Below, piece after piece: positions 190-36,147 of a DNA stretch of 36,147 nt. The notes beneath the pieces were generated by a model. The model was not told the DNA's origin and did not search any database. It saw only the letters and a list, made by a program, of their open reading frames with translations. The position numbers were made by a program, and so were the translations under genes. Every line of letters begins with the position of its first letter. The first letter of the stretch is position 1. This DNA comes from a virus. Lineage: Duplodnaviria > Heunggongvirae > Uroviricota > Caudoviricetes. The DNA is taken from the IMG/VR virus record IMGVR_UViG_2623620505_000004, positions 1 to 36,147 of that record; one strand, given 5' to 3'.

Positions 190-585
190 TCATTCGTTCC
201 CCTCTTTTTCCTTATTTCGTTGAACGCCAATTGCGACACACGTACTAAGCAAATCTTTACATTTCTCTACGTCTTCAGACTTACGCAATTTGATACTTTT
301 TACAGACTGCGGGCTACTGTCCGTAGCACGATACATCGTTATTTCAATATCATTTCGGTTTAAGAGTCCCATAATGGCTTTTGCAACCTCCACACCCTTC
401 TTCGCGAAATCAAAGAACAGAGCAAGTTTATATGGATTTTCGACGGAAAAAACTTCAATTTTGCTAAAACCAACATCGTGTAGAGAAAAATATTGCTCAA
501 CCTCATCTCGAAGTTCTGGATCGCATACAATATCTATTCTCCAGTACTGACCTAAATGCAAATCGCTATTAACTGTTTTTTCCAC
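190..585 (-). CDS. Hypothetical protein, AT-rich cargo ORF between integrase and left end
   Basis: ORF track 190-606 has a TTG first codon; a GTG at 585-583 sits 5 nt after a perfect AAGGAGG. No ATG near the 5' end. No recognisable motif. AT-rich codon usage unlike the phage backbone. Confidence 0.5.
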   Translation of the reverse strand: MEKTVNSDLHLGQYWRIDIVCDPELRDEVEQYFSLHDVGFSKIEVFSVENPYKLALFFDFAKKGVEVAKAIMGLLNRNDIEITMYRATDSSPQSVKSIKLRKSEDVEKCKDLLSTCVAIGVQRNKEKEGNE

Positions 586-595
586 AACATCCTCC

Positions 596-1570
596 TTACC
601 CAGCAATAGGATTAAATCTCACCGCATCCTGCAAGTAATCCGGCGCAAGATGGGCATAAATCATCGTTGTCTGAATCTTTGCGTGCCCCAGAATTTTCTG
701 GAGCGTCAGAATATTGCCGCCGTTCATCATGAAATGACTGGCGAAGGTGTGGCGCAGCGCATGAACAGCCTGGCCGTCAGGAACATCAGGTGCGACCGTT
801 TTGATGACATCGCGAACCAATGGATAATCCAGCGTCGGAAACACCAGTTTCCCGCCCCGTTTTTTGATCTTTTCAAACAGGCTTTCAGAAATAGGAACGG
901 TACGGTTTTTGCTGTTCTTCGTTTTTGAAAAAGTGATTCGACAATGAAGAACACGGCGCTGCTCCAGTGCCGCTACCTCGCCCCATCGCGCCCCGGTCGA
1001 CAGAAGGATTTCGACGGCCAGCCGTTCATCGGGATTTTCAGCCAGTGCATCCAGCAACTGAACACATTCAGACTTACTCAGATATCCCATTTCACGCTCG
1101 TTAACCTTCATTCCTTTAAGGCCTTGAACGGGGTTATCGTTAAGAAAATGGCCGGATGAGATGAGTGCGGTAAACATCGCGCTTAACGCCCCAATCTCTC
1201 GATTTATGGTGCTGGGCTGTATCCCCTGCTCTATCCTGGACACACGTAGCTCGGTGAGCATCGTTGTATTAAGTTTATGCACGCACGGGTCATCCATTGC
1301 CTCACTCAAGCGCAGCAATTTAAGGCGCGTGTTATGCCCTGACTTCATTAGCTGGCCGTGGTATTTCCACCACAAGTCAATAAGCACTGACAGCGGACGG
1401 CGATCAATGGAGTTTCCTTTCCACTCATTGTTATGCTGTTGCGCCAGCACCCACCGCTCATATAAAACTGCATCCGATTTCGTTTTAAATTTTTTGCGAA
1501 TGCGTTTGCCTTTACGCCCCTCAGGACGCATGTCAAGAAGATACCCTCCCGGAATTGATTTTATGCTCAT
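596..1570 (-). CDS. int: Tyrosine integrase (P2 Int-like)
   Basis: Translation from ATG 1570-1568 begins MSIKSIPGGYLLDMRPEGRKGKRIRKKF and ends with the catalytic region HALRHTFASHF...ILGHAKIQTTMIYAHL (R-H-R-Y tyrosine recombinase box). The upstream part of the ORF-track frame (596-1720) is not used. Confidence 0.92.
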   Translation of the reverse strand: MSIKSIPGGYLLDMRPEGRKGKRIRKKFKTKSDAVLYERWVLAQQHNNEWKGNSIDRRPLSVLIDLWWKYHGQLMKSGHNTRLKLLRLSEAMDDPCVHKLNTTMLTELRVSRIEQGIQPSTINREIGALSAMFTALISSGHFLNDNPVQGLKGMKVNEREMGYLSKSECVQLLDALAENPDERLAVEILLSTGARWGEVAALEQRRVLHCRITFSKTKNSKNRTVPISESLFEKIKKRGGKLVFPTLDYPLVRDVIKTVAPDVPDGQAVHALRHTFASHFMMNGGNILTLQKILGHAKIQTTMIYAHLAPDYLQDAVRFNPIAG

Positions 1571-4365: not shown

Positions 4366-7188
4366 ATGACGGCAGAGTACATCAGGGACTGGCAACAACC
4401 GCGCCACGCAGTGGGGCGTGAAGGAACGGGGATCCCCGCTCCTGAATCCGCGCTTTCCTCCTGGCTGGATGCCTACCGGGTAGAGAACGAGCGCCGCCAG
4501 GAAATGGCTGATGCGGCCTTCTCCGCCACGCCACTGGGCAACCTGATTAATAAAAGCCTGGACGCACAGGAAAAACAGGACAAAACCATCACACTGGCAG
4601 GAGACGCCAGAAAACAGGCACGCGGCGCGGTGGATGAAGCCATGGCCTCGCTGCGCCTGCTGCCGTCCTATCTGCGCGATCCGCTTATTCGCCACCTCTC
4701 CTTCCTGCGCAAAAAACAGGAAGCCGATCGCCGGAAAGGCAAAAAGAGCTGGCAGGCGGAACGCTATGCACGCGGAACCCTGCGCAAAATATTCGAACGT
4801 CTGGATCGCACTGACGGACACTGGCTGACACCGGGTTATCGCTCCCTTGCCGGACGCGAACGCCTGGACGATTTGCTTTACCTGCCGCAGCTCAACAAAC
4901 ACCAGATACAGACGCTGGCCACCATGACGGCGGCGATGTTCAGCAGCACCTTCGAAAAACTCTGCGATGGCTTTGGCGCGACCGATGGCGAACTGACCAT
5001 GGATGTAACGCTGAAGGCGTATCAGATGCTGGCCCGCATGGCGTTACACCTGCACATCATGCCTCCACATTATGACGCACTGACAACAGATAAAGACCGG
5101 AGGAACGAACCGGACACGGAGCTGCTGCCGGGCGCAATCCTTCGCCTGACCTGTGCGGAATGGTGGAAACGCAAACTGTGGCTGTTACGTTGCGAGTGGA
5201 GAGAAGAACAACTCCGCGCCGCCTGTCTGGTTTCCAGAAAAACATCACCCTATCTGAGCCAGGACGCGTTAAGCGAGTTTCGCGCACAGCGCGAGAAAAC
5301 ACGCGATTTCCTGAAAAGTTTCATGCTGGAAAACGAAGACGGGTTCACGATTGATCTCGAGACAGTGTATTACGCGGGAGTAAGTAACCCGGTTCACCGT
5401 AAGGCAGAAATGATGGCCACCATGAAGGGGCTGGAACTTCTGGCCGAAGCCCGTGGCGACAAAGCGGTGTTTCTGACTGTCACCTGCCCGTCAAAATACC
5501 ACGCCACAACAGAGAACGGTCATCCGAATCCCAAATGGAACGGGGCCACCATGCGCGACTCCAGCGATTACCTGGTTAACACGTTTTTTGCAGCGGTCCG
5601 CAAGAAACTGAACCGCGACGGCCTGCGCTGGTATGGCATCCGCACGGTGGAGCCTCACCATGACGGCACCGTGCACTGGCATATGATGGTCTTTGCTCAT
5701 CCGGAAGAAATCGACACCATTGTGTCCCACACCCGCGATATTGCCATTCAGGAAGATCGTCACGAGCTGGGTGATGATATTACCCCACGCTTTAAGGCGG
5801 AGTACGTCGACGGCTCAAAAGGCACGCCAACCAGCTACATCGCCACCTACATCGGAAAGAACCTGGACAGCCGCGCCGTGGATGGCATCGACCCGAAAAC
5901 GGGCAAGCCACGCGTTGACCACGAAACAGGTAAATCAATGGCCGAGAGCGTGGAGCGCGCCATCGGCTGGGCGCGCCTTCACCGGGTCCGCCAGTTCCAG
6001 TTCTTTGGCATCCCCTCCCGTCAGGTGTGGCGTGAACTCCGCCGCCTTGCCAGCCAGATGGCACGCAACCCGGAAGGCCCGCAACGGCTGAAGGATGACG
6101 CAATGGATGCGGTACTCGCTGCCGCTGATGCCGGATGTTTTGCCACCTACATTGAAAAACAGGGTGGCGTACTTGTTCCGCGCAAGGACTACCTGATTCG
6201 CACAGCCTACGACCTCGCAGATGAGCTGAACGATTACGGCGAACAGAGTGTACAGATTTACGGGATCTGGTCGCCATTCATCGGGGAATCCTCCCGTGTG
6301 TGCACGCATCCGGATAACTGGAAGCTGGTAAGACGTAAACCGGAAGCGGAAGACAGCGCCCGCGAAAATGGTTTTGACCTTCAGGGCGGCCCTGCCGCCC
6401 CTTGGACTCGTGGCAATAACTGTCCCCGTGTACAGGAAACGGACAACAACGGGACAGAACAGCCGGAAGAACGGCCAGCACCGTGGCCGCAGCTCCCTGA
6501 CGGCGTTGAAGTGAACGAATGGATGCGCTCACTGAAACGGCACGAACGCCGGGCGCTGATGCGTTCGCTGCGTGACAAACAGGCAAAAAACAGCAGTGAT
6601 GAAATGCAGAGCTGGACACAGAGCCGCAAACAGCAGCGGCCTTTGCCTGATAACCACGAATTACTCGCTAAAGAATGGCGGGAGTCTGCTGAATCTCTCG
6701 GCCTGCATATCGGTGAACAACAGATGCAGCACCTGTTACGGGGCGGCAGTCTGTACGTTGACGGCAGCATCATTGCACCGCAGGGATTTGAAATTGTACG
6801 CAAACCGGATACCCGCCCGGACAGCCGAATCACGCAGCTCTGGCAACGCCTGAGCCGTAATCACGGCGTAAGCAGCACGGAGATCCGCCATAACCCGGTC
6901 GCCAGTTATCTGGAACAGCTGGGGGCATCAGACAATGAAGCCGCAGCACGCCTGGCATCCACACTTCAGCAGGACCAGAACACCATGAACCCCCCCGTTA
7001 CCGTGCTTTCTGACATGCTGCGCGCCATCCGTGACGCAGAGCACGCACAAAGAATCAATGAAACCACTGAACGCGTCCGCCGCAAAGCAGACCTGCTGCG
7101 GGGTGGACTAACCAGTGAAAACAAAAAACAGACAAAAACGGGATTCACAAATCCCGTAAATGAGCAAAAAACGCGCCGCGATATATGA
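4366..7188 (+). CDS. A: Replication initiation protein gpA (rolling-circle HUH endonuclease), with long C-terminal extension
   Basis: Motifs TVEPHHDGTVHWHMMVF (HUH metal site) and SYIATYIGKNLD (active-site tyrosines) match the P2 A signature. 940 aa against about 760 for P2 A as remembered; the extra C-terminal region is polar and low-complexity. Confidence 0.9.
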   Translation: MTAEYIRDWQQPRHAVGREGTGIPAPESALSSWLDAYRVENERRQEMADAAFSATPLGNLINKSLDAQEKQDKTITLAGDARKQARGAVDEAMASLRLLPSYLRDPLIRHLSFLRKKQEADRRKGKKSWQAERYARGTLRKIFERLDRTDGHWLTPGYRSLAGRERLDDLLYLPQLNKHQIQTLATMTAAMFSSTFEKLCDGFGATDGELTMDVTLKAYQMLARMALHLHIMPPHYDALTTDKDRRNEPDTELLPGAILRLTCAEWWKRKLWLLRCEWREEQLRAACLVSRKTSPYLSQDALSEFRAQREKTRDFLKSFMLENEDGFTIDLETVYYAGVSNPVHRKAEMMATMKGLELLAEARGDKAVFLTVTCPSKYHATTENGHPNPKWNGATMRDSSDYLVNTFFAAVRKKLNRDGLRWYGIRTVEPHHDGTVHWHMMVFAHPEEIDTIVSHTRDIAIQEDRHELGDDITPRFKAEYVDGSKGTPTSYIATYIGKNLDSRAVDGIDPKTGKPRVDHETGKSMAESVERAIGWARLHRVRQFQFFGIPSRQVWRELRRLASQMARNPEGPQRLKDDAMDAVLAAADAGCFATYIEKQGGVLVPRKDYLIRTAYDLADELNDYGEQSVQIYGIWSPFIGESSRVCTHPDNWKLVRRKPEAEDSARENGFDLQGGPAAPWTRGNNCPRVQETDNNGTEQPEERPAPWPQLPDGVEVNEWMRSLKRHERRALMRSLRDKQAKNSSDEMQSWTQSRKQQRPLPDNHELLAKEWRESAESLGLHIGEQQMQHLLRGGSLYVDGSIIAPQGFEIVRKPDTRPDSRITQLWQRLSRNHGVSSTEIRHNPVASYLEQLGASDNEAAARLASTLQQDQNTMNPPVTVLSDMLRAIRDAEHAQRINETTERVRRKADLLRGGLTSENKKQTKTGFTNPVNEQKTRRDI

Positions 7189-7233
7189 AGCGCGCACAAA
7201 ACAGGCAAAAGAGGGATTTAAAAATCCCGTAAA
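7139..7233 (+). repeat. Two direct copies of a palindromic 21-bp motif upstream of parM (candidate parC / ParR operator)
   Basis: CGGGATTCACAAATCCCGTAAA at 7139-7160 and GGGATTTAAAAATCCCGTAAA at 7213-7233, each an inverted repeat (GGGATTT...AAATCCC). The first lies in the last codons of gpA, the second just upstream of the parM start. Confidence 0.45.
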
Positions 7234-7264
7234 CGATTAATTAATCAACATAAGGAAAATCGAC

Positions 7265-8224
7265 ATGAAAATTTGTATCGACGACGGCTCCACCAACATC
7301 AAGCTGGCATGGACTGAGAACGGCGAACGCCGCAACGCCATCAGCCCGAACAGCTTCAAGTCGGAATGGTCTGCGCCGTTCGGTGGCTCGCAGCCTGCGA
7401 ACTACATGCTTGATGGCGTGCGCTATGGTTTTGATCCGGTCAGCGATCGCTTTGTCCAGACGACCGACACGCAATACCAGTACAGCGATGTGAATGTAAT
7501 CGCCATTCACCACGCGCTGGTCAAATCAGGCATCACACCACAGGAGGTGGATGTGGTTGTCACCCTGCCACTGAGCGAGTATTTCGACACAAACGCACAG
7601 CCGGACATGGCCAACATCAACCGCAAAAAAGCGAACGTTATGCGCCCGGTGGAGTACCAGAACGGCGAAGCATTCACTATCCGTAACGTGCGGGTTATGC
7701 CTGAATCCATTCCGGCTGGCTTTAAGGCACTGGCTGACATGAGTCCGTTTGAATCCCTGCTGATTGTGGATTTGGGCGGAACCACGCTGGATGTGGCAAA
7801 GGTTCAGGGGCAACTGGCAGGTATCAGCCAGGTGTTTTGCGATCCACACGTAGGCGTTTCTCTGATGGCCGATGCCGTACTGTCGGTGATGGCCACTAAC
7901 GGTATGCGCACCAGTCACCACATCGCCAATACCATTATCGAACATCGCCATGATGAAGCCTGGCTGCGCCAGCACATCCACAATGACGCGCATTACGACA
8001 GCCTGATGGCGGTTATTCGTGAAAAGGAAGAAACGCTGAAACAACGAGTGATCCGCGCGCTGGCGGGTTTTTCGGGTTACGGGCGGGTGATGGTTGTCGG
8101 TGGAGGGGCGGAGATTGTGGCACCCGCTATCCGCGAAGCCTGCGGAGTTAATGCGACTTTCATCGCGGACGGGGTGCCACAGTTTGCTCTGGTCAATGGT
8201 TTGTACGCAATGGACAAGGAGTAA
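7265..8224 (+). CDS. parM: ParM/StbA-like actin-type segregation ATPase
   Basis: N-terminus MKICIDDGSTNIKLAW and internal LLIVDLGGTTLDV, VMVVGGGAE align with plasmid R1 ParM (MLVFIDDGSTNIKLQW..., IIDLGGTTLDI, VIGGGAE) as remembered, along most of the length. Confidence 0.85.
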   Translation: MKICIDDGSTNIKLAWTENGERRNAISPNSFKSEWSAPFGGSQPANYMLDGVRYGFDPVSDRFVQTTDTQYQYSDVNVIAIHHALVKSGITPQEVDVVVTLPLSEYFDTNAQPDMANINRKKANVMRPVEYQNGEAFTIRNVRVMPESIPAGFKALADMSPFESLLIVDLGGTTLDVAKVQGQLAGISQVFCDPHVGVSLMADAVLSVMATNGMRTSHHIANTIIEHRHDEAWLRQHIHNDAHYDSLMAVIREKEETLKQRVIRALAGFSGYGRVMVVGGGAEIVAPAIREACGVNATFIADGVPQFALVNGLYAMDKE

Positions 8225-8228
8225 ACCA

Positions 8229-8540
8229 ATGACGACACCAACCAGACGGATAAGTCTCTATCTGAAGCCCGCCGCCGTCAAGAACGAAGGCGAAGCATGC
8301 GCCTGGCTGGACAGCCTTACACCAGAAGCCCGCAAAAGCGGCCAACGCGTGGCTTTTCTGGCCGGGCTGGCACTTCTGAAAATGAATCCGGCAGAGGCTT
8401 ACCGACTGGCTGCATGGGCTGACGATGAGGCGTTATCAGTGACACAAACCAGGGCAGAACGCCACATGTTACAGACAGCCCCCACCGCACAGATAACCAG
8501 TCAGATGGCCGGAAATATCCGGGCGTTATTTCCCGATTAG
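8229..8540 (+). CDS. parR: ParR/StbB-like centromere-binding adaptor (putative)
   Basis: ATG at 8229 after AAGGAG; 103 aa immediately downstream of parM. Segment LDSLTPEARKSGQRVAFLAGLAL resembles R1 ParR (LDSIPQGERSRLNRAALTAGLAL) as remembered. Confidence 0.6.
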   Translation: MTTPTRRISLYLKPAAVKNEGEACAWLDSLTPEARKSGQRVAFLAGLALLKMNPAEAYRLAAWADDEALSVTQTRAERHMLQTAPTAQITSQMAGNIRALFPD

Positions 8541-8610
8541 AACTTTGCACGGGAGGTTTCCAGTTCTGAAAACAATCAACAAATAAGGAGTCGAACGTCA
8601 AAGATATAAG

Positions 8611-8637
8611 GCCGCCTAGCTGGCGGTCTTGTGTCTT
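8611..8637 (+). terminator. Putative intrinsic terminator after parR
   Basis: GCCGCC-TAGCT-GGCGGT hairpin followed by CTTGTGTCTT. Confidence 0.4.
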
Positions 8638-8670
8638 AAAATATGTTTATCTTAATGAGGACTATTATTT

Positions 8671-9189
8671 TTATAAAAAATAATCATCATGAGAGGAAAC
8701 ATGAAAATTATAATCTCTCAATTGGGGGATAATCCCTCTACTCCAAAGCAACGTTTTATTTAGTCCAAGTCCATCTAATTTCATCATCCTGTTGCGCAGC
8801 GCAATGAATTCATTCTTGAAGTTATCTGCAGAGATGATCTTTGGGCAAAAACAAGAATACAACTTTCTATTACTTACACCACAAGCATTGGCAAGCTCAT
8901 CCTCAAAATTGCTTGTTTGTTGAAATAGGTGGATTGTGTGTTTTTTCGCCTTTAATAGATTGAGATTATTCTTAAATCTATCAAGATTCTCAATCCTATC
9001 CGTATCAAAAACCACTATGATTTCGCTATTTTCGGTTAATGCTGGCATGTATTTATTTATATTAACATTCCATAAATTAGCAATTACTATTTTCTTAATA
9101 GGATAGCCTAGCAATGTTTTGAAATCCTGAAACAATGCTTTTTCCGTATCTCCCTCAACAAGAATAATAGCAAATTTCTTAACTGCCAT
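8671..9189 (-). CDS. Small TOPRIM-clan protein (OLD/DUF4435/RloB-like), putative nuclease partner of the upstream ATPase
   Basis: ATG at 9189 (GAGGA upstream) 2 nt after the ATPase stop; the ORF-track start at 9195 is TTG. 172 aa. AILVEGDTEK (TOPRIM glutamate) and IVVFDTDR (DxD) in the expected order. Strongly AT-rich. Confidence 0.6.
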   Translation of the reverse strand: MAVKKFAIILVEGDTEKALFQDFKTLLGYPIKKIVIANLWNVNINKYMPALTENSEIIVVFDTDRIENLDRFKNNLNLLKAKKHTIHLFQQTSNFEDELANACGVSNRKLYSCFCPKIISADNFKNEFIALRNRMMKLDGLGLNKTLLWSRGIIPQLRDYNFHVSSHDDYFL

Positions 9190-9191
9190 AA

Positions 9192-10391
9192 TCAATCCTC
9201 AAATAGCATCTCTTCGATTAATGAAACGTCAGGTATTGTTGCAAAACAGTCATTTTTTACTTTATTTAAAAGATTGCGATCATTCTTTTTATGATGTGTG
9301 GTAGCTTCAACAAAAGTGGTTACACCATCTACTTTTTTAGTAAAAGTATATGAATGCGTAGGCAGATCTAAGCTCAAGATATCATAATTATGTGTGGTGT
9401 ATATAAATTGACCATATCTGCAAAGCTTAGATATAATCAGCGTGACCATCATTTTTTCTAATTCAGTATGAGTGAAGGCCATTTTCTCATCCAAAAAGTA
9501 CACCCCACTGCAAGGGAAATTGAACTCTCGCTCTTCTATTTTATCTTCAAGCACTCCTGACAGGAGATGGGATATTTTTACTGCCTCATAAGTACCACGA
9601 GACAGTCTATCTTTATTTGTTATATCACCTTCCATATCAATAATAACTCTATCTCCATTATTGAAGACTACTGAATAACCCTGCAAATCCTCCTTTCCCT
9701 CATCATCTTTAAGAGTGAGTCCTGAGACAGATTTAACAGTATTGTCAAAGGTTTTTAATATGCTATTAAGCACATTCTTCTTAATTCGTGATATTTTATC
9801 CGTGTTCTCTTGGTTTTCAGATAGAATGAAATGCCAACCAAGAACAAAGTCCAAATCCTCTAAATATTGGGAAAATTCTTTTGAGTTAGCGTTTTCGGTT
9901 GAAAAAAATCTATTTTGACCATTTAATTCAAACTTTTGCGCATCCCACACAGCATCCAGTCTTTTGGTCGTCTTTGCGCATGATTCCGAGCTTCTTAAAT
10001 CAACAGATGCCATTGCAATTTTTTCTACAACAACAGACTCATCCATAGCCCTAAGCCAGACACCTGCCCTAAACAAACATTTTAAATGACTCTGGAAAAA
10101 GTCAACCTCTATATATGCAGGTTTTCTTTTGTCAGTAATTTTTAACGGTTCTGGATTGAAAACACCACTACTGAGAAAACGCAACACAGAAAGCATCACG
10201 CGACCAAGAGATGTTTTACCAGATGCATTAGCACCAGAAACGATGCAAACCTTTTTGAAGTAGAACTTTTCAAATCCATCAATGTACTCACCTTCCAGTG
10301 AGCTGTTGATCGGGGGTCTGGAGAAGCTTAAGTCAAGGATGCTATTTTCAAAGCAAAACAGATTATCGATTCTGATTTTTGTAAAAGCCAT
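9192..10391 (-). CDS. ABC/AAA-type ATPase (AAA_15/AAA_21-like), putative defense ATPase
   Basis: ATG at 10391 with GGTGG RBS. Walker A GANASGKTS, signature-like LSRGTYEAV, Walker B VYFLDE, H-loop-like TTHN. 399 aa, AT-rich, tightly coupled to the downstream TOPRIM gene. Confidence 0.75.
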   Translation of the reverse strand: MAFTKIRIDNLFCFENSILDLSFSRPPINSSLEGEYIDGFEKFYFKKVCIVSGANASGKTSLGRVMLSVLRFLSSGVFNPEPLKITDKRKPAYIEVDFFQSHLKCLFRAGVWLRAMDESVVVEKIAMASVDLRSSESCAKTTKRLDAVWDAQKFELNGQNRFFSTENANSKEFSQYLEDLDFVLGWHFILSENQENTDKISRIKKNVLNSILKTFDNTVKSVSGLTLKDDEGKEDLQGYSVVFNNGDRVIIDMEGDITNKDRLSRGTYEAVKISHLLSGVLEDKIEEREFNFPCSGVYFLDEKMAFTHTELEKMMVTLIISKLCRYGQFIYTTHNYDILSLDLPTHSYTFTKKVDGVTTFVEATTHHKKNDRNLLNKVKNDCFATIPDVSLIEEMLFED

Positions 10392-10927: not shown

Positions 10928-11974
10928 TCAGGATGTGGGCTGGGTATCTAACAGTGCGTAAGGGTTAAAGCGGATCACCTCTTCGCCAAGCCAGTCATTG
11001 ATGTGCTTCATGGCCTCCATGACGGGCATCAGCTCGTTAATTGCGTAAACCCGCGCGGCCTTCTCCACATCACCAAACGCACTTTTTTCGCCCGGCATCG
11101 CCCCCATCAGTTGCGGCGGAACGCGGTGCGCAGCCAGCACATCATCACGGGATGCCGCCTTAACATTCATGAACTCATCCTTTGCGGTGATCTGCTGGAA
11201 CGGCAAAATTTGCACCCCCTCTTTGCCCCCGTTGGGCGCATGAATGAGCACGTTTTTAAACGCACCACCACCACGTGCCCCCTGTAGCGTTTCTTTCAGG
11301 GAGTCCATGCTTTCGCGGTTTACCTGCGCTGCACCGATGTAGATGATGCACCCGGCGTGGGATCCGTTGTCGTAGTACAGTTTTCTGAACATGTCCGCCG
11401 AATGAGAAAGGCTGGCCGAGAGTAATGCGCCAAGATATTCCGGCATGCCGTAGATTTCCTGGTTAATATCCGGATTCATCAGGTGGCACACTTTGCCAGG
11501 ACGAAACTGAAACGCATCCTTGCCATCCTGCACATACCACCATGATTCAAGATCGCTTCCGCGTCGCATGTATTTCGCCAGGGCGTGCCGTAATTTAAGC
11601 GGTTCGCCGAGCATATTGCTCCGAAGCTCAAGGAATGCGTTACCGAACACAAACCAGTCCAGCGCCAGCGCCGAGAAATCCTGCCGGGAAAGCAGCGGGT
11701 GCGGAATATAGCAGCCGAGCAATACATTGCGCTTAAAGTAAAGCGCAGACTGATGCCAGGACGTTTGCCGGGCAGCTCTTGCCAGACCGTACCAGTCCAC
11801 CGGGGTTTCATACCACCGCCCGTTATCAGCACAGTACATATTGTCCAGCAGGTCATGCCCGGTCAGGCGATAAGGACCATCAAATGTGAATGCACTGAGC
11901 GATGATTCTTTCCTGAGCGCATCAGCGAGATCAATGCGTGAACTCATGCGCACTTTTTTATTTTTTCTGCTCAT
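10928..11974 (-). CDS. Q: Portal protein gpQ
   Basis: 348 aa, position and size as P2 Q; start ATG overlaps the terminase stop by 1 nt (TGATG). First gene product of the leftward Q-P late operon's downstream end. Confidence 0.88.
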   Translation of the reverse strand: MSRKNKKVRMSSRIDLADALRKESSLSAFTFDGPYRLTGHDLLDNMYCADNGRWYETPVDWYGLARAARQTSWHQSALYFKRNVLLGCYIPHPLLSRQDFSALALDWFVFGNAFLELRSNMLGEPLKLRHALAKYMRRGSDLESWWYVQDGKDAFQFRPGKVCHLMNPDINQEIYGMPEYLGALLSASLSHSADMFRKLYYDNGSHAGCIIYIGAAQVNRESMDSLKETLQGARGGGAFKNVLIHAPNGGKEGVQILPFQQITAKDEFMNVKAASRDDVLAAHRVPPQLMGAMPGEKSAFGDVEKAARVYAINELMPVMEAMKHINDWLGEEVIRFNPYALLDTQPTS

Positions 11975-13725
11975 CAGAACTCCATAACCGTGAAACGCTC
12001 GTTTTCTCCTTCGCCGCCAATCGGTTCATTAATGACAGCAAGCATGGTTGCCCACGCAAGGTCGCCGTGGCTGATCCCCCTCGCTCGGTCCGTTTCGTAA
12101 GTGATAAAGCCGCCCGGTGTTTTCACCTTACGCACGGCGTTAAAGGCCGCGACCAGCTCGCGTTCGGCGCGATCGTATTCCCACCGCCCGGCACGCATTA
12201 TTTGCAGCATTTTCAGTACCAGCGACCGTTTTGATGACAGCGTGAAGGTGTACGGAATAGCAGCAGGGAAAAACCGTTTCACTATCTGATAAACGGCATC
12301 CCCGTGCCCGCCAGTCGCATCAATGCCGATGTGTTCCACGTTGTAGCGACACGTGAACTCTTCAATGACTCTGGCCTGTTCTTCAAACTCCAGCCCCTGA
12401 ACGCGTCGCGTCTCCACCGTTCGAAAACGGCCACCAGGAACAGCCGGAGGAACCACCACGGACACAGCGCCGCTGTCGCCGTTTCCACTGCTGCCGTTTG
12501 CGTCATACCCAATCCATACCGGACGATTCCCCATCGGGCGGGGAGCAAAAGGTTTCCAGTCTTTCCAGTCGTCGTATCCATCAACACCGCAGCCAATCAG
12601 GATATTCAGGTTAAATGCCGATTCCCCTTCGCGGACAAACTCACACATATAGAGATTGCGGAACTCGTCTTCGGTGTTTTCATCACGAATTTCATCAATA
12701 TCGGTGTGTTTCCAGCCGTGATTAACCACATCTTCCAGCGTGACAATTTGCCGCCACGTCCGGTCGGGGCAGATAAGCCCGTTATGCAGCGTTTTCCAGT
12801 CCACAGAAAAACGCTGGCGTTTATGCGCGGCCTTTTTCTCGTTCCAGCGGTCGCCGTTCCAATAGACGTATGCCTCGTGCGTTTCGGTGGATGGCGTGGA
12901 GAAGTAGGTGCGTCGCAGCCCGCTGAGGGTTGCCATAGCGCCAGCCACCTTGCGCAGTTCAGCAAAGCGACTGACCCAGAAAAATTCATCAAAATAAAAA
13001 TTGCCTGTGTAGGACTGTGCCGTCGCAGCAGAAGTACCGAGAAAATGCAGTTCTGCGCCGTTGGAGAGGATGATTTTATCGCCCCCTTTCAGCTCCACAT
13101 CAACTTCAGCCGCGGCCTTCTGAATAATGCTTTTAAACTGGAACGCCTGACGACGCGACGCAGACAAAAAAATCTGGTTACGCTGGTAAGGTTGTGCCAC
13201 ATCGTCACGCAGCGCCATCAGCAGTGCTTCCTGTGCAAAATACCAGGTCGCCCCAATCTGTCGGGATTTCAGGATCATCCTGTTACGTATCCCGGCTTCA
13301 CTGCAAAGGGTCAGGGAGTCAAACCAGCCCCGCTGATGCCACTCCAGCCTGCTGATGATTTTTTCCCGCAGTGCGGCAATCTGCTCCGGCGTGAAATGAT
13401 TTTTAAGTTTTTTCGCCCGGCCTTTCTTTCCTGTGGCCGTCGCATCCGGCTGGCCATCATGCAGTTTTTTAAGCTGCCGGGTCAGCAGGTCTATTTCCTT
13501 AAAGTCACCACCTGTTTTATTCTGTTTTTCAGTAAGCTGGATGAGGCGCGCATCGATGGACTGCGTGACACGCTGCACGGGTGGCGTTTCATCCCACTGG
13601 TCGCGTTTTTTCCACGCATAAATCGTGTTCGGGTTTATTCCCATCAGACGTGATATTTCTGCGGGCGGATAACCCTGCCAGTAAAGTTGCCGCGCACGCT
13701 GGCGCACAAAAGCGTCCTGAATCAT
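11974..13725 (-). CDS. P: Terminase large (ATPase) subunit gpP
   Basis: 583 aa, ATG at 13725; size and position as P2 P; N-terminal HTH-like region (GYPPAEISRLMGINPNTIYAWKKR) and nuclease-like C-terminal half. Confidence 0.88.
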   Translation of the reverse strand: MIQDAFVRQRARQLYWQGYPPAEISRLMGINPNTIYAWKKRDQWDETPPVQRVTQSIDARLIQLTEKQNKTGGDFKEIDLLTRQLKKLHDGQPDATATGKKGRAKKLKNHFTPEQIAALREKIISRLEWHQRGWFDSLTLCSEAGIRNRMILKSRQIGATWYFAQEALLMALRDDVAQPYQRNQIFLSASRRQAFQFKSIIQKAAAEVDVELKGGDKIILSNGAELHFLGTSAATAQSYTGNFYFDEFFWVSRFAELRKVAGAMATLSGLRRTYFSTPSTETHEAYVYWNGDRWNEKKAAHKRQRFSVDWKTLHNGLICPDRTWRQIVTLEDVVNHGWKHTDIDEIRDENTEDEFRNLYMCEFVREGESAFNLNILIGCGVDGYDDWKDWKPFAPRPMGNRPVWIGYDANGSSGNGDSGAVSVVVPPAVPGGRFRTVETRRVQGLEFEEQARVIEEFTCRYNVEHIGIDATGGHGDAVYQIVKRFFPAAIPYTFTLSSKRSLVLKMLQIMRAGRWEYDRAERELVAAFNAVRKVKTPGGFITYETDRARGISHGDLAWATMLAVINEPIGGEGENERFTVMEF

Positions 13726-29763: not shown

Positions 29764-30276
29764 TCAGCCAAGCCCAAGCGCGGAACGGATACGGTCAGGC
29801 ACAATGTCCTTGCCGTCCTTCCGGTAGATGTGGTTCAACAGGTCGATTTCCCACAGCGGGCGATCGTTAACGCTCAGCTTGTAGTAGGTGTTTTTGACAG
29901 CGTAAGTGTGTGATGTGGCTTCGCCCTGTTTGGCTTCCCCCATATCAATTTCCGTCACACGTCCGCGCATCTCGATTTCATACAGATCGCTTTCTGCATC
30001 GGTGTAGTATTCACCCGCAAAACGCAGCAGCGTGCCGTCAATCGTGCCGCCATATTTAAGGAACAGCGCACGAACAGCTCCCCCCATAACAAAACTCGCA
30101 TCAAGCGCGGAGTCGTCCAGACCGAGATCAATACTTACCGCCCCCATCATGCCACCACCACGATAGCTGTCGGTTTTGCGCGTCAGTTTGGGCGGCGTGA
30201 CGGATGTCACTTTACCCACTTCGTTTTCACCATCCACAAACAACGTAAAAAAGCGAAGATGTTTTGGTACAGCCAT
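29764..30276 (-). CDS. FII: Tail tube protein gpFII
   Basis: MAVPKHLRFFTLFVDG...VTPPKLTRKTDSYRGGGMMG...LRFAGEY aligns with P2 FII as remembered; start overlaps the FI stop (TGATG). Confidence 0.9.
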   Translation of the reverse strand: MAVPKHLRFFTLFVDGENEVGKVTSVTPPKLTRKTDSYRGGGMMGAVSIDLGLDDSALDASFVMGGAVRALFLKYGGTIDGTLLRFAGEYYTDAESDLYEIEMRGRVTEIDMGEAKQGEATSHTYAVKNTYYKLSVNDRPLWEIDLLNHIYRKDGKDIVPDRIRSALGLG

Positions 30277-33039: not shown

Positions 33040-35178
33040 TCAGGCAATCTCGCGACCAACATCGTCATTTGCCGCAAAAGCTGATAGTAACAAATTATCA
33101 CACTCAGTTATGACATATTCTGGAATGAGATCGAATCTAGCCGGATCCAGCTGGCAGATAAACTCATTTTCGATATGATAGGTTTCATTAATAAATTTCT
33201 GAATTACAGAGTTTGTATGCTCAATACCCATTAACCTGAAAACTTGCAATTTTTCGTAGCTACTTTTGCAACTGAAATAAAGCGTGGTGAGAAAGTTTTC
33301 GCAGGTGATTTTTGCTAGCTCTACCTTATAGTTGAAATCTGGAATATGATTAATTATTTCGTGACAACCTAAATTTTCACTAACTTCTGACATTAACGAA
33401 TATTCCCCGTCGATCTTCGCCAAGCGCCTATCCTCCAGAAATTCCCGCTTATGAAAAAGATTTGAAAGCACTTGATAGGCATCCCCCAGATCATCAAGGA
33501 TTTCGTAATGACGGCGAAGATATATCAACTTAATAATATCGTCACTCACAGACTGTAGAGCCGATGTGCAGATTTGAGCAAAAGTTTTGATATCCGAATT
33601 TGAAATTGGTTGCTCTGTAATAACACCATTACTGTAGCGGAGATAAGCTGCTGAAACTTGATTATCAAATTGCTGCCTAACAGCGCGAATAGTATCGATG
33701 ATTGGCTCAACATCATGCGTCAACATCAGCACTGTTTTACTCTTAAGACAATCAGATGGCTCTCTACGAAAAAGCATTTCAAGAATCGCAAACTTCTTAT
33801 TTTTATCGAACGAGGAAATGGGATCATCCAAAATAATCAGACTTGGTTTTCTAGAAAGACATTCATACATGAAGAGCACGAGGGCAAACGCATTTCTTTC
33901 ACCGTAACTTAGATGTTGGCTACCACCAGTGACGACATCTGTATGATCTACATGATAGAGTTGTAGTCGTGGCTGTGCATCGTCTGTTATCCGCACACGG
34001 TAACGATAACCAGCATAGGATAGAAAATCATTGATATTTTTTTGGTGCTTTATAACGAGCTGGCGTACTTTATTCCGCTGCTGATTCAGTTTACCCTGAA
34101 GTGGTCCAGCGCTTGCAATTAGATCAGTCAGAGAAGTATTGAGTGCATCAACAATACGTGTGGTTTCTTCTGATTGAAGTTCAGTAAAGAAGTCCAGATT
34201 CAACTTGTAAGAGGCGAGTTTAGCAGCTACATCGTCTCCTTCTGTGAAGCTAAATCCGGAAAGCGTTTTAAGCACGGTAAGTTTATCTATTAGATCATCT
34301 GTTTGAGATTTAAGGGTGATAAGATATGTTTCATGCTGCTGCTCAAGACCATTAGGAAGGGTTGTGATTTCTTTAAGACGATCACGGGCAGAGTCAGTAA
34401 GGTAAATTCCTAAACGCTGAATGACATCAACAAGCTCCATCAAATTTTTGATGACAGCTTGGTCATATTCTACTCCAACCTGTTGAATTCGTTGTTGTTG
34501 TTGTTCGGTAGATTCACTACTGCAATAAGGACAGTACTCACCCGCAAGTTCACCAAACTCTGTTAGCCCTTTTGTCTGCCAAGCAATCCACTGCACACTT
34601 TTATTACTAGTTATCATGTTTCTGTACGGTTCAAGTGCGGCAGGGATATGAAGAAGTTTATTACCTCCAGCAAGCGCTTTCATACCCTTTGTACTTTTAC
34701 TAAGAGCAGATGCTGCAGTGACTTTAAATGCACTGGATAAAACAGTGAGATCGCTCAATAGGGTTTCCAGTTGTGTATGCTCGGTAAACACCTGACGGAT
34801 CGTCGAAATAATTAATTCTATTTCACTCTCTGTTCTGATATACGCGTCAGTTTTGATTAATATGTCGAAACTGTTGGCTACAAGCTCATCCTGACGGAAT
34901 GTGAACTGGCTAACATACTCCTCATTGAAACACATTATATTATCTAGTTGTTCCATTCCGGTCACAGAGGGCGCAACATTATCGGGGTTATTTGCCCTGA
35001 ATTTAAAAGGAAGTAATTCTGCCAAACAAGCTTCCTGCCCAGGCAAACTGAACTGCATCGCCCGAGCAATAGTGCTTTTCCCTGTACCATTCGGCGCAAA
35101 ACGAATATTCAACTTTTTTTCGGCTAGAGAAACAGTAGCAAAGTCAATGCTATTACAGTAACTAATTTCAATTTCCAT
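33040..35178 (-). CDS. Rad50/SMC-like ABC ATPase with coiled-coil CxxC hook and C-terminal HEPN-like domain (RloC/AAA_13-like); candidate single-gene defense protein
   Basis: ATG at 35178 after GAAGG. Walker A APNGTGKST near the N-terminus; long helical insert containing CPYC; signature LSYGERN, Walker B LIILDDP and H-loop LMLTHD about 450 residues later; C-terminal about 200 aa with RLMGIEH (Rx5H). AT-rich island. Confidence 0.75.
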   Translation of the reverse strand: MEIEISYCNSIDFATVSLAEKKLNIRFAPNGTGKSTIARAMQFSLPGQEACLAELLPFKFRANNPDNVAPSVTGMEQLDNIMCFNEEYVSQFTFRQDELVANSFDILIKTDAYIRTESEIELIISTIRQVFTEHTQLETLLSDLTVLSSAFKVTAASALSKSTKGMKALAGGNKLLHIPAALEPYRNMITSNKSVQWIAWQTKGLTEFGELAGEYCPYCSSESTEQQQQRIQQVGVEYDQAVIKNLMELVDVIQRLGIYLTDSARDRLKEITTLPNGLEQQHETYLITLKSQTDDLIDKLTVLKTLSGFSFTEGDDVAAKLASYKLNLDFFTELQSEETTRIVDALNTSLTDLIASAGPLQGKLNQQRNKVRQLVIKHQKNINDFLSYAGYRYRVRITDDAQPRLQLYHVDHTDVVTGGSQHLSYGERNAFALVLFMYECLSRKPSLIILDDPISSFDKNKKFAILEMLFRREPSDCLKSKTVLMLTHDVEPIIDTIRAVRQQFDNQVSAAYLRYSNGVITEQPISNSDIKTFAQICTSALQSVSDDIIKLIYLRRHYEILDDLGDAYQVLSNLFHKREFLEDRRLAKIDGEYSLMSEVSENLGCHEIINHIPDFNYKVELAKITCENFLTTLYFSCKSSYEKLQVFRLMGIEHTNSVIQKFINETYHIENEFICQLDPARFDLIPEYVITECDNLLLSAFAANDDVGREIA

Positions 35179-35555: not shown

Positions 35556-35816
35556 ATGTTCCGTTGTCCGCTTTGTGGCGCATCTGCCCGTATCCGCACA
35601 AGTCGCCCTGAAAATGATTCGAATACCGTGCGGCAAAAATATTACCAGTGTAACAACCTGGAATGCGGCGTATGCTTCTCAACACTGGAAGCCTTCCATA
35701 AATTCACATCGAAACACGCCTCCAGCGCTCACTCTTCGGAGAGTATCCCTTGGCATGATCTGCCAGCTTCACACAGAGGAAACAATCAGATGAGTTTGCC
35801 CTTACCTCAGAATTAA
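35556..35816 (+). CDS. ogr: Ogr/Delta-family zinc-finger late gene activator
   Basis: MFRCPLCGASARIRTSR...YYQCNNLECGVCFSTLE aligns with P2 Ogr (MFHCPLCQHAAHARTSR...YHQCQNVNCSATF) including both Cys pairs; AAGGGAGG RBS. Confidence 0.85.
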   Translation: MFRCPLCGASARIRTSRPENDSNTVRQKYYQCNNLECGVCFSTLEAFHKFTSKHASSAHSSESIPWHDLPASHRGNNQMSLPLPQN

Positions 35817-35876: not shown

Positions 35877-36140
35877 ATGGTCGGAGGGAATACCCGAAGG
35901 CCAGATGTGGAAAGGCCCCGGAAAACATCTCTGTTTAACCGAGGCCCTAACCGCATTACCTTGACAAGTGAAAGGTTAGCGCCTCTCCGGAAAAGGAGCA
36001 AGTGCTATGTCGCAAAAATCGCTTACGGCCATCACGTTCTGCGTGACGGCAATCCTCATCATCTGGATGTTGCACGGTTCGCTGTGCGAAATACGGATGA
36101 GCTTCTGGGGAGCGGAGTTTGCGGCGTTCTTACAGTGTAA
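35877..36140 (+). CDS. Possible mok-like overlapping frame of the hok locus
   Basis: 87-aa ORF overlapping the hok frame and ending 7 nt before the hok stop, the arrangement of mok in hok/sok loci. No sequence signature. Confidence 0.3.
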   Translation: MVGGNTRRPDVERPRKTSLFNRGPNRITLTSERLAPLRKRSKCYVAKIAYGHHVLRDGNPHHLDVARFAVRNTDELLGSGVCGVLTV

Positions 36141-36147
36141 GCAGTAA
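36007..36147 (+). CDS. Hok/Gef-family type I toxin peptide
   Basis: 46-aa ORF MSQKSLTAITFCVTAILIIWMLHGSLCEIRMSFWGAEFAAFLQCKQ: one TM helix, then the family motif SLCE and AAF near the C-terminus; preceded by a GC-rich structured leader and AAGGAG. Stop codon is the last triplet of the window. Confidence 0.7.
   Translation: MSQKSLTAITFCVTAILIIWMLHGSLCEIRMSFWGAEFAAFLQCKQ

Follow-up and report, generated by a model that had tools for sequence, protein, structure and literature searches.

An R1-like ParMRC module in P88-like prophages of Escherichia coli, with a proposed role on the transient phage circle

The DNA examined in this study is the IMG/VR virus record IMGVR_UViG_2623620505_000004 (Caudoviricetes; positions 1 to 36,147), and the whole stretch of 36,147 nucleotides (nt) is referred to here as the window. 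It is a P2-like prophage of the P88-like type (Xuanwuvirus, Peduoviridae) from Escherichia coli, with its own integrase gene, a gene for a C-like helix-turn-helix (HTH) protein, the rolling-circle replication initiator gene gpA, portal and terminase genes, tail genes, and ogr. Between gpA and the portal gene, at the position of the orf91/tin/old site of P2, lies a cassette of a repeat array (here called parC) and two genes, parM and parR, that resembles the ParMRC partition locus of plasmid R1. DNA of Escherichia phage P88 and of further Xuanwuvirus members is 94 to 96% identical to the window over positions 6900 to 8536. Annotations of the cassette exist already in GenBank, RefSeq, and PHROGs, and records of P88 and Xuanwuvirus list a "plasmid segregation protein ParM" and a "partition protein." The searchable literature appears to contain no description of the cassette as a conserved core component of one branch of P2-like phages, of its exact limits, of the upstream dyads as a candidate centromere, or of its prevalence. 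An earlier reading of the window made from the letters alone (the sequence-only reading) had placed the cassette at the boundary of a tin/old-type cargo hotspot in an integrase-bearing P2-like prophage, and the gene order and the presence of int bear out both statements.

The first gene of the cassette, parM, encodes an actin-like segregation ATPase of 319 amino acids (aa). Pfam matches were found for StbA_N (2.1e-82) and for the ParM C-terminal domain (9.9e-69), and a phmmer search of the PDB aligned residues 2 to 316 with residues 2 to 318 of R1 ParM (1mwk; E = 9.8e-93), in agreement with the alignment along most of the protein that had been claimed from the sequence. Over the full length, the two proteins are 46% identical (147/317), and the phosphate and adenosine motifs of the actin/ASKHA nucleotide-binding site (DDGSTNIK, MPESIPAG, DLGGTTLD, and VVGGGAE) are intact and align with those of R1 ParM. 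The ratio of nonsynonymous to synonymous substitution rates (dN/dS) of ParM is 0.058 across 86 loci with 69 distinct alleles, showing that the protein is under strong purifying selection, and reading frames are intact at 86 of 88 loci. The G+C content of parMR (51 to 57%) is at the level of the phage backbone, compared to 32 to 39% in the neighboring cargo. PHROGs contains the proteins of both genes as partition-protein families, and PADLOC assigned no family to either of them. A nonfunctional plasmid remnant that merely hitchhikes with the phage, an explanation for which the plasmid ancestry of the family speaks and nothing else, is effectively refuted by the low dN/dS, the intact frames, the ameliorated G+C content, and the synteny across genera described below.

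Immediately downstream, parR encodes an adaptor of the ParR/StbB family with 103 aa. The resemblance to ParR noted earlier is confirmed by a Pfam match to PF10784 (Plasmid_stab_B; 8.7e-24). A search of the PDB with the single ParR sequence gave no match; with an alignment profile, the top match was ParR of pB171 (2jd3; residues 7 to 68 versus 9 to 69), which is weak (E = 0.022). The protein is built from an invariant N-terminal strand, TRRIS(F/L)YLKP, a hypervariable linker, and a conserved C-terminal tail, NI(R/Q)xxFP(D/E). This is mirrored in the dN/dS values, which amount to 0.10 to 0.15 for the N-terminal 63 residues (with the segment MTTPTRRISFYLKP nearly invariant), 0.45 to 0.54 for the linker, which falls into two allele families, and 0.04 for the tail (type A alleles). 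A tail motif, N(I/V/A)xxLFP(D/E), is common to the window ParR, the ParR of an IncL/M plasmid, and four other prophage ParRs. In R1, the C terminus of ParR binds ParM, and a shared, conserved tail is what would be expected of a ParM-binding peptide. With these data, there is very little doubt that the two genes form a genuine and selected ParM/ParR pair.

The two ParR allele families of E. coli prophages, the window type and the O157:H7 type, are about 53% identical to each other, and the ParM next to either of them is 98 to 99% conserved, with no change in the upstream region. The breakpoints of recombination lie within parR, at about window positions 8283 and 8374.

Directly upstream of parM, the window contains two direct repeats of 42 nt (7122 to 7163 and 7195 to 7236) that are 83% identical, each with an A-tract that precedes a 20-bp dyad of the form ACGGGATT-N4-AATCCCGT. 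In dyad 2 the arms are kept among relatives, and the 4-nt center is dimorphic (nucleotide diversity [pi], 0.25). The sequence-only reading had reported a 21-bp palindromic motif in two copies, one of them overlapping the end of gpA. The presence, number, and overlap of the copies hold, as the window has exactly two copies of the motif GGGATT-N3-AAATCCCGTAAA (7140 to 7160 and 7213 to 7233), compared to 0.03 occurrences expected from shuffled sequences; its extent had to be revised, the true repeats being 42 nt long with 20-bp dyads. The coordinates of all these features are compiled in Table 1.

Table 1. Features of the P88-like prophage and of the par cassette, in window coordinates unless stated otherwise
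Feature	Position	Strand	Remarks
Integrase gene	596-1720	minus	element's own int gene
C-type repressor (C-like HTH gene)			present in window
gpA, rolling-circle replication initiator, 940 aa	4366-7188	+	Pfam Phage_GPA, 5e-132
Homologue of P2 ori nick site, GCCGCCCC/TTGGACTCGTGGCAATAACTGT	6392-6423	+	inside gpA; alignment to P2 record
Candidate parC centromere/operator	7123-7236	+	pair of 42-nt direct repeats whose starts are 73 bp apart, each an A-tract and a 20-bp dyad
Dyad 1, ACGGGATT-CACA-AATCCCGT	7138-7157		inside gpA coding tail; arms mostly kept in 59 distinct upstream sequences
Dyad 2, (GA)GGGATT-TAAA-AATCCCGT	7211-7230		most relatives read ACGGGATT-TCAG-AATCCCGT
ATTAATyAA box	7236-7248	+	about 25 nt before parM start; invariant in E. 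coli/Hafnia/Plesiomonas alignment
parM, actin-like segregation ATPase, 319 aa	7265-8224	+	Pfam, phmmer, PHROGs
parR, ParR/StbB-family adaptor, 103 aa	8229-8540	+	ATG start at 8229; Pfam PF10784; PHROG 2515
Strong hairpin	8600-8637	+	about -28 kcal/mol for 61-nt stretch 8590-8650; z = -7.6; also listed on minus strand
Portal gene	10928-11974	minus	
Terminase gene	11974-13725	minus	
ogr	35556-35816		
Start of module homology in loci L062 and L071	about 2859-2925 of those loci		corresponds to window 7123-7188

The limits of the cassette became apparent from two IMG/VR prophages, independent mosaics that carry different genes upstream of it (L062 and L071). In both, nucleotide homology to the window begins at position 7123/7124, which is the first base of repeat 1. 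In L062, the C-terminal domain of gpA is a different, zinc-finger-like one, to which the same module-derived tail is fused. L071 has a divergent gpA of 773 aa followed by an unrelated open reading frame (ORF) of 159 aa that stops before the module, so that repeat 1 is intergenic there. At the right edge, all nucleotide matches end at the stop codon of parR. Since the homology edges fall at these two points, the recombining unit consists of repeat 1, repeat 2, parM, and parR (7123 to 8540), and both repeats belong to the par module, as the breakpoints enclose them. In the window, the last ~22 codons of gpA (KQTKTGFTNPVNEQKTRRDI, 7123 to 7188) are thus supplied by the par module.

Furthermore, the gene order gpA-(optional ORF)-ParM-ParR-cargo-portal-terminase recurs in P2-like prophages of Hafnia, Plesiomonas, Serratia, and Enterobacter, the ParMs of which are 54 to 63% identical to that of the window. 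These prophages fall into two groups with respect to ParR and the repeats. Group 1 (E. coli, Hafnia, and Plesiomonas) combines the ParR strand TRR(I/V)SFYL with two YGGG-N10-CCCR dyads spaced 72 to 73 bp apart, in surrounding DNA that has diverged. Group 2 (Serratia and Enterobacter) has the strand NRKISFYLKP and a 14- to 20-nt inverted repeat, GGGAACnAnATAGAAAAAT, with arms 26 to 28 nt apart, and an IncL/M plasmid with the strand NRKCSFYIYP carries GTATTTTTCT direct iterons. We refer to positions 7123 to 7236 as parC because the repeats change together with the DNA-reading strand of ParR and are always found within ~150 bp upstream of parM. Such co-variation of repeats and ParR strand is a signature of a ParR centromere/operator; it supports the assignment of parC, for which it is our main argument, and the dyads are probably the binding sites of ParR. 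The proposal of the sequence-only reading that the repeats are a candidate centromere or operator has thereby gained the backing of the module boundaries and of the comparison across genera. Between the ParR allele type (A or B) and the variant of the dyad center, no correlation was observed.

A scan of genome contigs with ParM returned three near-identical loci only, and the divergent contexts described here came from a protein search with contig look-ups. Relatives with 53% identity or less were found in plasmid-type contexts. In a quick neighbor-joining tree (no bootstrap, indicative only), the prophage ParMs formed two groups apart from the ParMs of plasmids and integrative and conjugative elements (ICEs). 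The module is best explained as a long-standing core component of one branch of P2-like phages. A ParM/ParR pair was also detected on a Dickeya chromosome (ParM 49% identical), in an ICE context with an integrase and TraG_N, which is a further integrating element with an R1-family partition cassette.

As an alternative, the repeats could terminate leftward transcription intrinsically or serve a different regulator as operators, in which case ParR would bind at another place or not at all. Each of the two dyads scores on the minus strand as a hairpin with a T-run behind it, the RNA folding energy is about -10 kcal/mol for 61-nt stretches holding the dyads, and some arm substitutions in relatives keep G-U pairs in the minus-strand RNA (judged by eye, ~6 versus 2, not significant). 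The Plesiomonas dyads, however, keep only CGGG/CCCG with a 10-nt center and lack a T-run, and those of Hafnia have their A-run on the opposite side, while dyad geometry and the 72-bp spacing are still kept in both genera. In addition, a strong hairpin already lies between parR and the leftward cargo genes, and both repeats are inside the module boundary. Given the geometry and spacing kept in Hafnia and Plesiomonas, a terminator is therefore a minor alternative, and we consider it unlikely that the repeats are anything other than a centromere or operator of ParR. This judgment concerns the repeats only and is independent of the purpose that the cassette serves.

A GC-rich palindrome between the repeats (7173 to 7194) and the dyads themselves were also considered as the phage origin. 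Both were rejected, since the nick-site homologue of the P2 ori is found within gpA, ~740 bp before the dyads, and 7173 to 7194 varies among relatives. In P2, this site reads GCCGCGCC/TCGGAGTCCTGTCAATAACTGT, with the nick annotated at position 29892 of the P2 record.

With regard to expression, a scan of positions 6800 to 8800 for consensus sigma-70 promoters gave nothing at threshold, and no plus-strand terminator was found between gpA and parM. In the absence of a convincing promoter of its own and of a terminator after gpA, parMR is probably transcribed together with the early replication operon. The invariant ATTAATyAA box shortly before parM is a possible -10 element of a weak promoter, which would then be controlled by ParR. 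The strong hairpin downstream of parR, which separates it from the convergent cargo genes, is likely the end of the rightward transcript.

We then looked at how frequent the cassette is and in which physical state it is found. It is present in 1,306 of 5,426 complete E. coli genomes, i.e., about one in four, and of 1,454 cassette places in these genomes, 1,452 are chromosomal and 2 are on plasmids. The plasmid database PLSDB contains seven near-identical copies. One of these is a circular record of 34,461 bp (NZ_CP148288; L004/L090) that represents a whole P88-like phage deposited as a plasmid of E. coli strain Z1323PEC0009 and carries int, parMR, and hok; it was the only phage-sized circular "plasmid" record found. 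This supports the view that the circular stage is at times abundant enough to be assembled, and a stable episomal or plasmid lifestyle is not supported. The same record also has a DNA methyltransferase gene and a Com-like regulator gene near attP. On the chromosome of E. coli O157:H7 7.1_Anguil, a degraded P2-like remnant has retained intact gpA, parM, and parR beside an IS3 pseudogene and tail fragments.

At the right, att-proximal end of the window, adjoining ogr, an ORF for a toxin of the Hok/Gef family (36007 to 36147, plus strand) runs past the window end; its Pfam match (4.1e-7) is above the cutoff. The records of phage P88 and of the circular P88-like "plasmid" likewise annotate a hok/gef gene. 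Both stability loci of plasmid R1, parMRC and hok, thus have homologues in P88-like phages.

This combination and the circular record would fit facultative phage-plasmids, in which ParMRC and hok keep a stable episomal prophage in some hosts. We regard this as improbable: practically all cassette places in E. coli are chromosomal, an integrase is present, and the circular record could be replicating or excised phage DNA caught by the assembler. Moreover, gpA belongs to the early operon, which in P2 is shut off from Pe by the C repressor (the operator sites are annotated), and the window has a C-like HTH gene. Somewhat less improbable, though still doubtful, is a true plasmid-like carrier phase of P88-like peduoviruses, in which the excised circle, replicated by gpA, would be inherited for several generations and would for that reason be equipped with both R1 stability loci. 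If so, these viruses would be facultative phage-plasmids, and a quarter of E. coli strains would have an active ParMRC centromere on the chromosome. The suggestion of the sequence-only reading that the element can persist extrachromosomally, understood as a stable state, was not substantiated by these counts, and a transient circle is the more economical explanation.

We propose that positions 7123 to 8540 are a complete type II (R1-like) ParMRC that moves transient phage circles apart, with the benefit that both daughter cells inherit the phage before integration, and assign this reading a probability of roughly 0.45. We infer that ParR dimers would bind the two 20-bp dyads upstream of parM, which are 73 bp (~7 helical turns) apart in A-tract-rich DNA. 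The conserved C-terminal tail of ParR would capture the ends of ParM filaments, and ATP-driven polymerization of ParM would push two circles of phage DNA apart. The action of the module would be limited to the period after infection or excision in which the phage genome exists as an extrachromosomal circle, and in which rolling-circle replication driven by gpA would produce monomeric circles. Phage genomes could in this way reach both daughter cells before they integrate, comparable to SrpMRC of the SXT/R391 ICEs.

Several observations weigh against segregation as the purpose, or against the repeats as its centromere. A P2-type phage expresses its early-operon genes on entering the lytic cycle, when inheritance by daughter cells matters little. 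The parC of R1 consists of ten 11-bp direct iterons in two blocks of five that flank a promoter; the window has two dyads only, which makes the strength of the centromere uncertain. Among the E. coli sequences, the dyad arms do not show a clearly lower diversity than synonymous sites (pi of 0.03 to 0.07 versus a synonymous diversity [pS] of 0.078), a population-level comparison that we judged uninformative and did not count as evidence. The AlphaFold monomer model of ParR (21 sequences) was poor, with a predicted local distance difference test (pLDDT) score of 51, and does not confirm the ribbon-helix-helix fold that an N-terminal ParR DNA-binding domain would have; residues 87 to 100, in the C-terminal tail, were predicted to be helical. 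Also, literature searches on ParM of P2-like phages and prophages, on phage P88, and on Xuanwuvirus found no functional work on the cassette.

A rival explanation gives the same machine a different purpose. ParMRC may position or spread the replicating circles during lytic growth and thereby aid replication or packaging. P2 replication yields monomeric circles, which are also what is packaged, and parMR lies directly downstream of gpA, with the dyads at a short distance from the nick-site homologue and with probable co-transcription from the early (lytic) operon. A precedent is found in the Corynebacterium glutamicum prophage CGP3, where AlpA and AlpC are induced early and are required for efficient replication (PMC4446434). 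Against this, R1-type ParM is a bipolar pushing system with segregation as its demonstrated function, and P2-like phages that lack the cassette, including P2 itself, are not known to need such help. We consider this lytic role possible and only somewhat less probable than segregation of the transient circles.

Finally, the cassette might serve the lysogen, with ParR/parC destabilizing incoming plasmids or phages that have a related centromere, or acting on the chromosome. Its location next to a defense-cargo hotspot, its intact state in the degraded O157:H7 remnant, and the allelic dimorphism and fast-evolving linker of ParR would agree with such a function. However, PADLOC has no matches for ParM or ParR, the composition of the cassette is that of the backbone and unlike that of the cargo, and an own promoter was not detected. 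Plasmid ParMs are at most ~53% identical and are associated with different repeats, so cross-reaction is unlikely. A service to the lysogen is accordingly among the least probable of the functions considered here, slightly behind a stable episomal prophage.

Several further genes of the window prophage look like cargo. In the tin/old-equivalent hotspot, two genes of low G+C content (32 to 39%) are located at 8671 to 10391 on the minus strand and are transcribed toward parR. They encode a 399-aa ATPase (PADLOC AbiLi, 1.1e-27; Pfam AAA_15) and a 174-aa OLD-like TOPRIM protein (PADLOC AbiLii, 6e-5; Pfam OLD-like_TOPRIM), and by these matches the pair looks like an AbiL-type defense system. An AAA_13/ABC-type ATPase of 712 aa (33040 to 35178, minus strand), encoded between gpD and ogr, matches PDC-S06, a candidate defense family, over almost its entire length (E = 9.7e-277) and suggests a second cargo hotspot. 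At the other end of the prophage, an ORF of 138 aa (190 to 606, minus strand) overlaps the start of the integrase gene by 11 bases; neither Pfam nor PADLOC gave a match for it, and it may represent cargo proximal to the attachment site. Scans of the window with Rfam and for tRNAs gave no matches.

With the cassette, about one-quarter of complete E. coli genomes have an R1-type segregation machine, which is subject to strong purifying selection and holds a fixed genome position in the prophages of several enterobacterial genera. In practice, the annotation of a "plasmid segregation protein" should not be read as a sign of a plasmid when the gene is chromosomal. If the two dyads are indeed the centromere, it would rank among the smallest in the ParR family. 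As P88 is inducible and both E. coli genetics and the tools developed for R1 ParMRC are available, the module is a tractable case for asking what active partition gives an integrating virus. Possible answers are inheritance of the transient circle, as in the SXT/R391 ICEs, or an organized lytic replication, as in CGP3.

Compared to known systems, the cassette is most similar to the ParMRC loci of R1, IncL/M plasmids, and pB171, with which it shares the gene order parC-parM-parR. Its ParM is 46% identical to that of R1 and 52% identical to an IncL/M ParM, and its ParR belongs to the same Pfam family as the plasmid ParRs and has the C-terminal tail in common with the IncL/M protein. It differs from the R1-type plasmid loci in being located in an integrating P2-like phage beside a rolling-circle initiator. 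Unlike R1 parC, the candidate centromere has two 20-bp dyads 73 bp apart instead of iteron blocks flanking a promoter, and no clear promoter of its own.

In a set of 50,697 phage records, D6 was the only phage outside Xuanwuvirus with a related ParM (48% identity), and its protein is annotated as "StbA type plasmid stability protein." D6 is a P1-like phage-plasmid of 91 kb, whereas the P88-like element carries an integrase and is found integrated.

With respect to lifestyle, the parallels are found in integrating elements. SrpMRC is a ParM-type partition system of SXT/R391 ICEs, which replicate from oriT by means of the TraI relaxase and also carry a toxin-antitoxin system (PMC4489591). It is expressed only around excision, and its demonstrated role is the inheritance of the transient circle (PMC4489591). 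Like these ICEs, the P88-like element is normally integrated and replicates as a transient circle only, with gpA, parMRC, and hok as the respective counterparts. The differences are that the host element is a phage and not an ICE, and that SrpM is distant from R1 ParM and SrpR is without a recognizable ParR domain (PMC4489591), whereas both proteins of the window are close members of the R1 family. The AlpAC/alpS system of prophage CGP3 comprises an actin-like ATPase and an adaptor that binds upstream of the operon (PMC4446434, PMC5539076). It is likewise found in an integrated prophage, and its genes are early genes whose products act on the circular DNA of the phage. In contrast to the module described here, AlpAC is actinobacterial, its operon is named alpAC whereas the ATPase gene parM comes first in the window, and its demonstrated role is efficient replication and not segregation. 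Active segregation had been called unexpected for an integrative phage in the sequence-only reading, which was an overstatement in view of SrpMRC (PMC4489591), AlpAC (PMC4446434), and the annotations that P88 and roughly one in four complete E. coli genomes already have for the cassette. Because its lifestyle parallels those of SrpMRC and AlpAC, active partition in an integrating element such as the P88-like prophage is not unprecedented.

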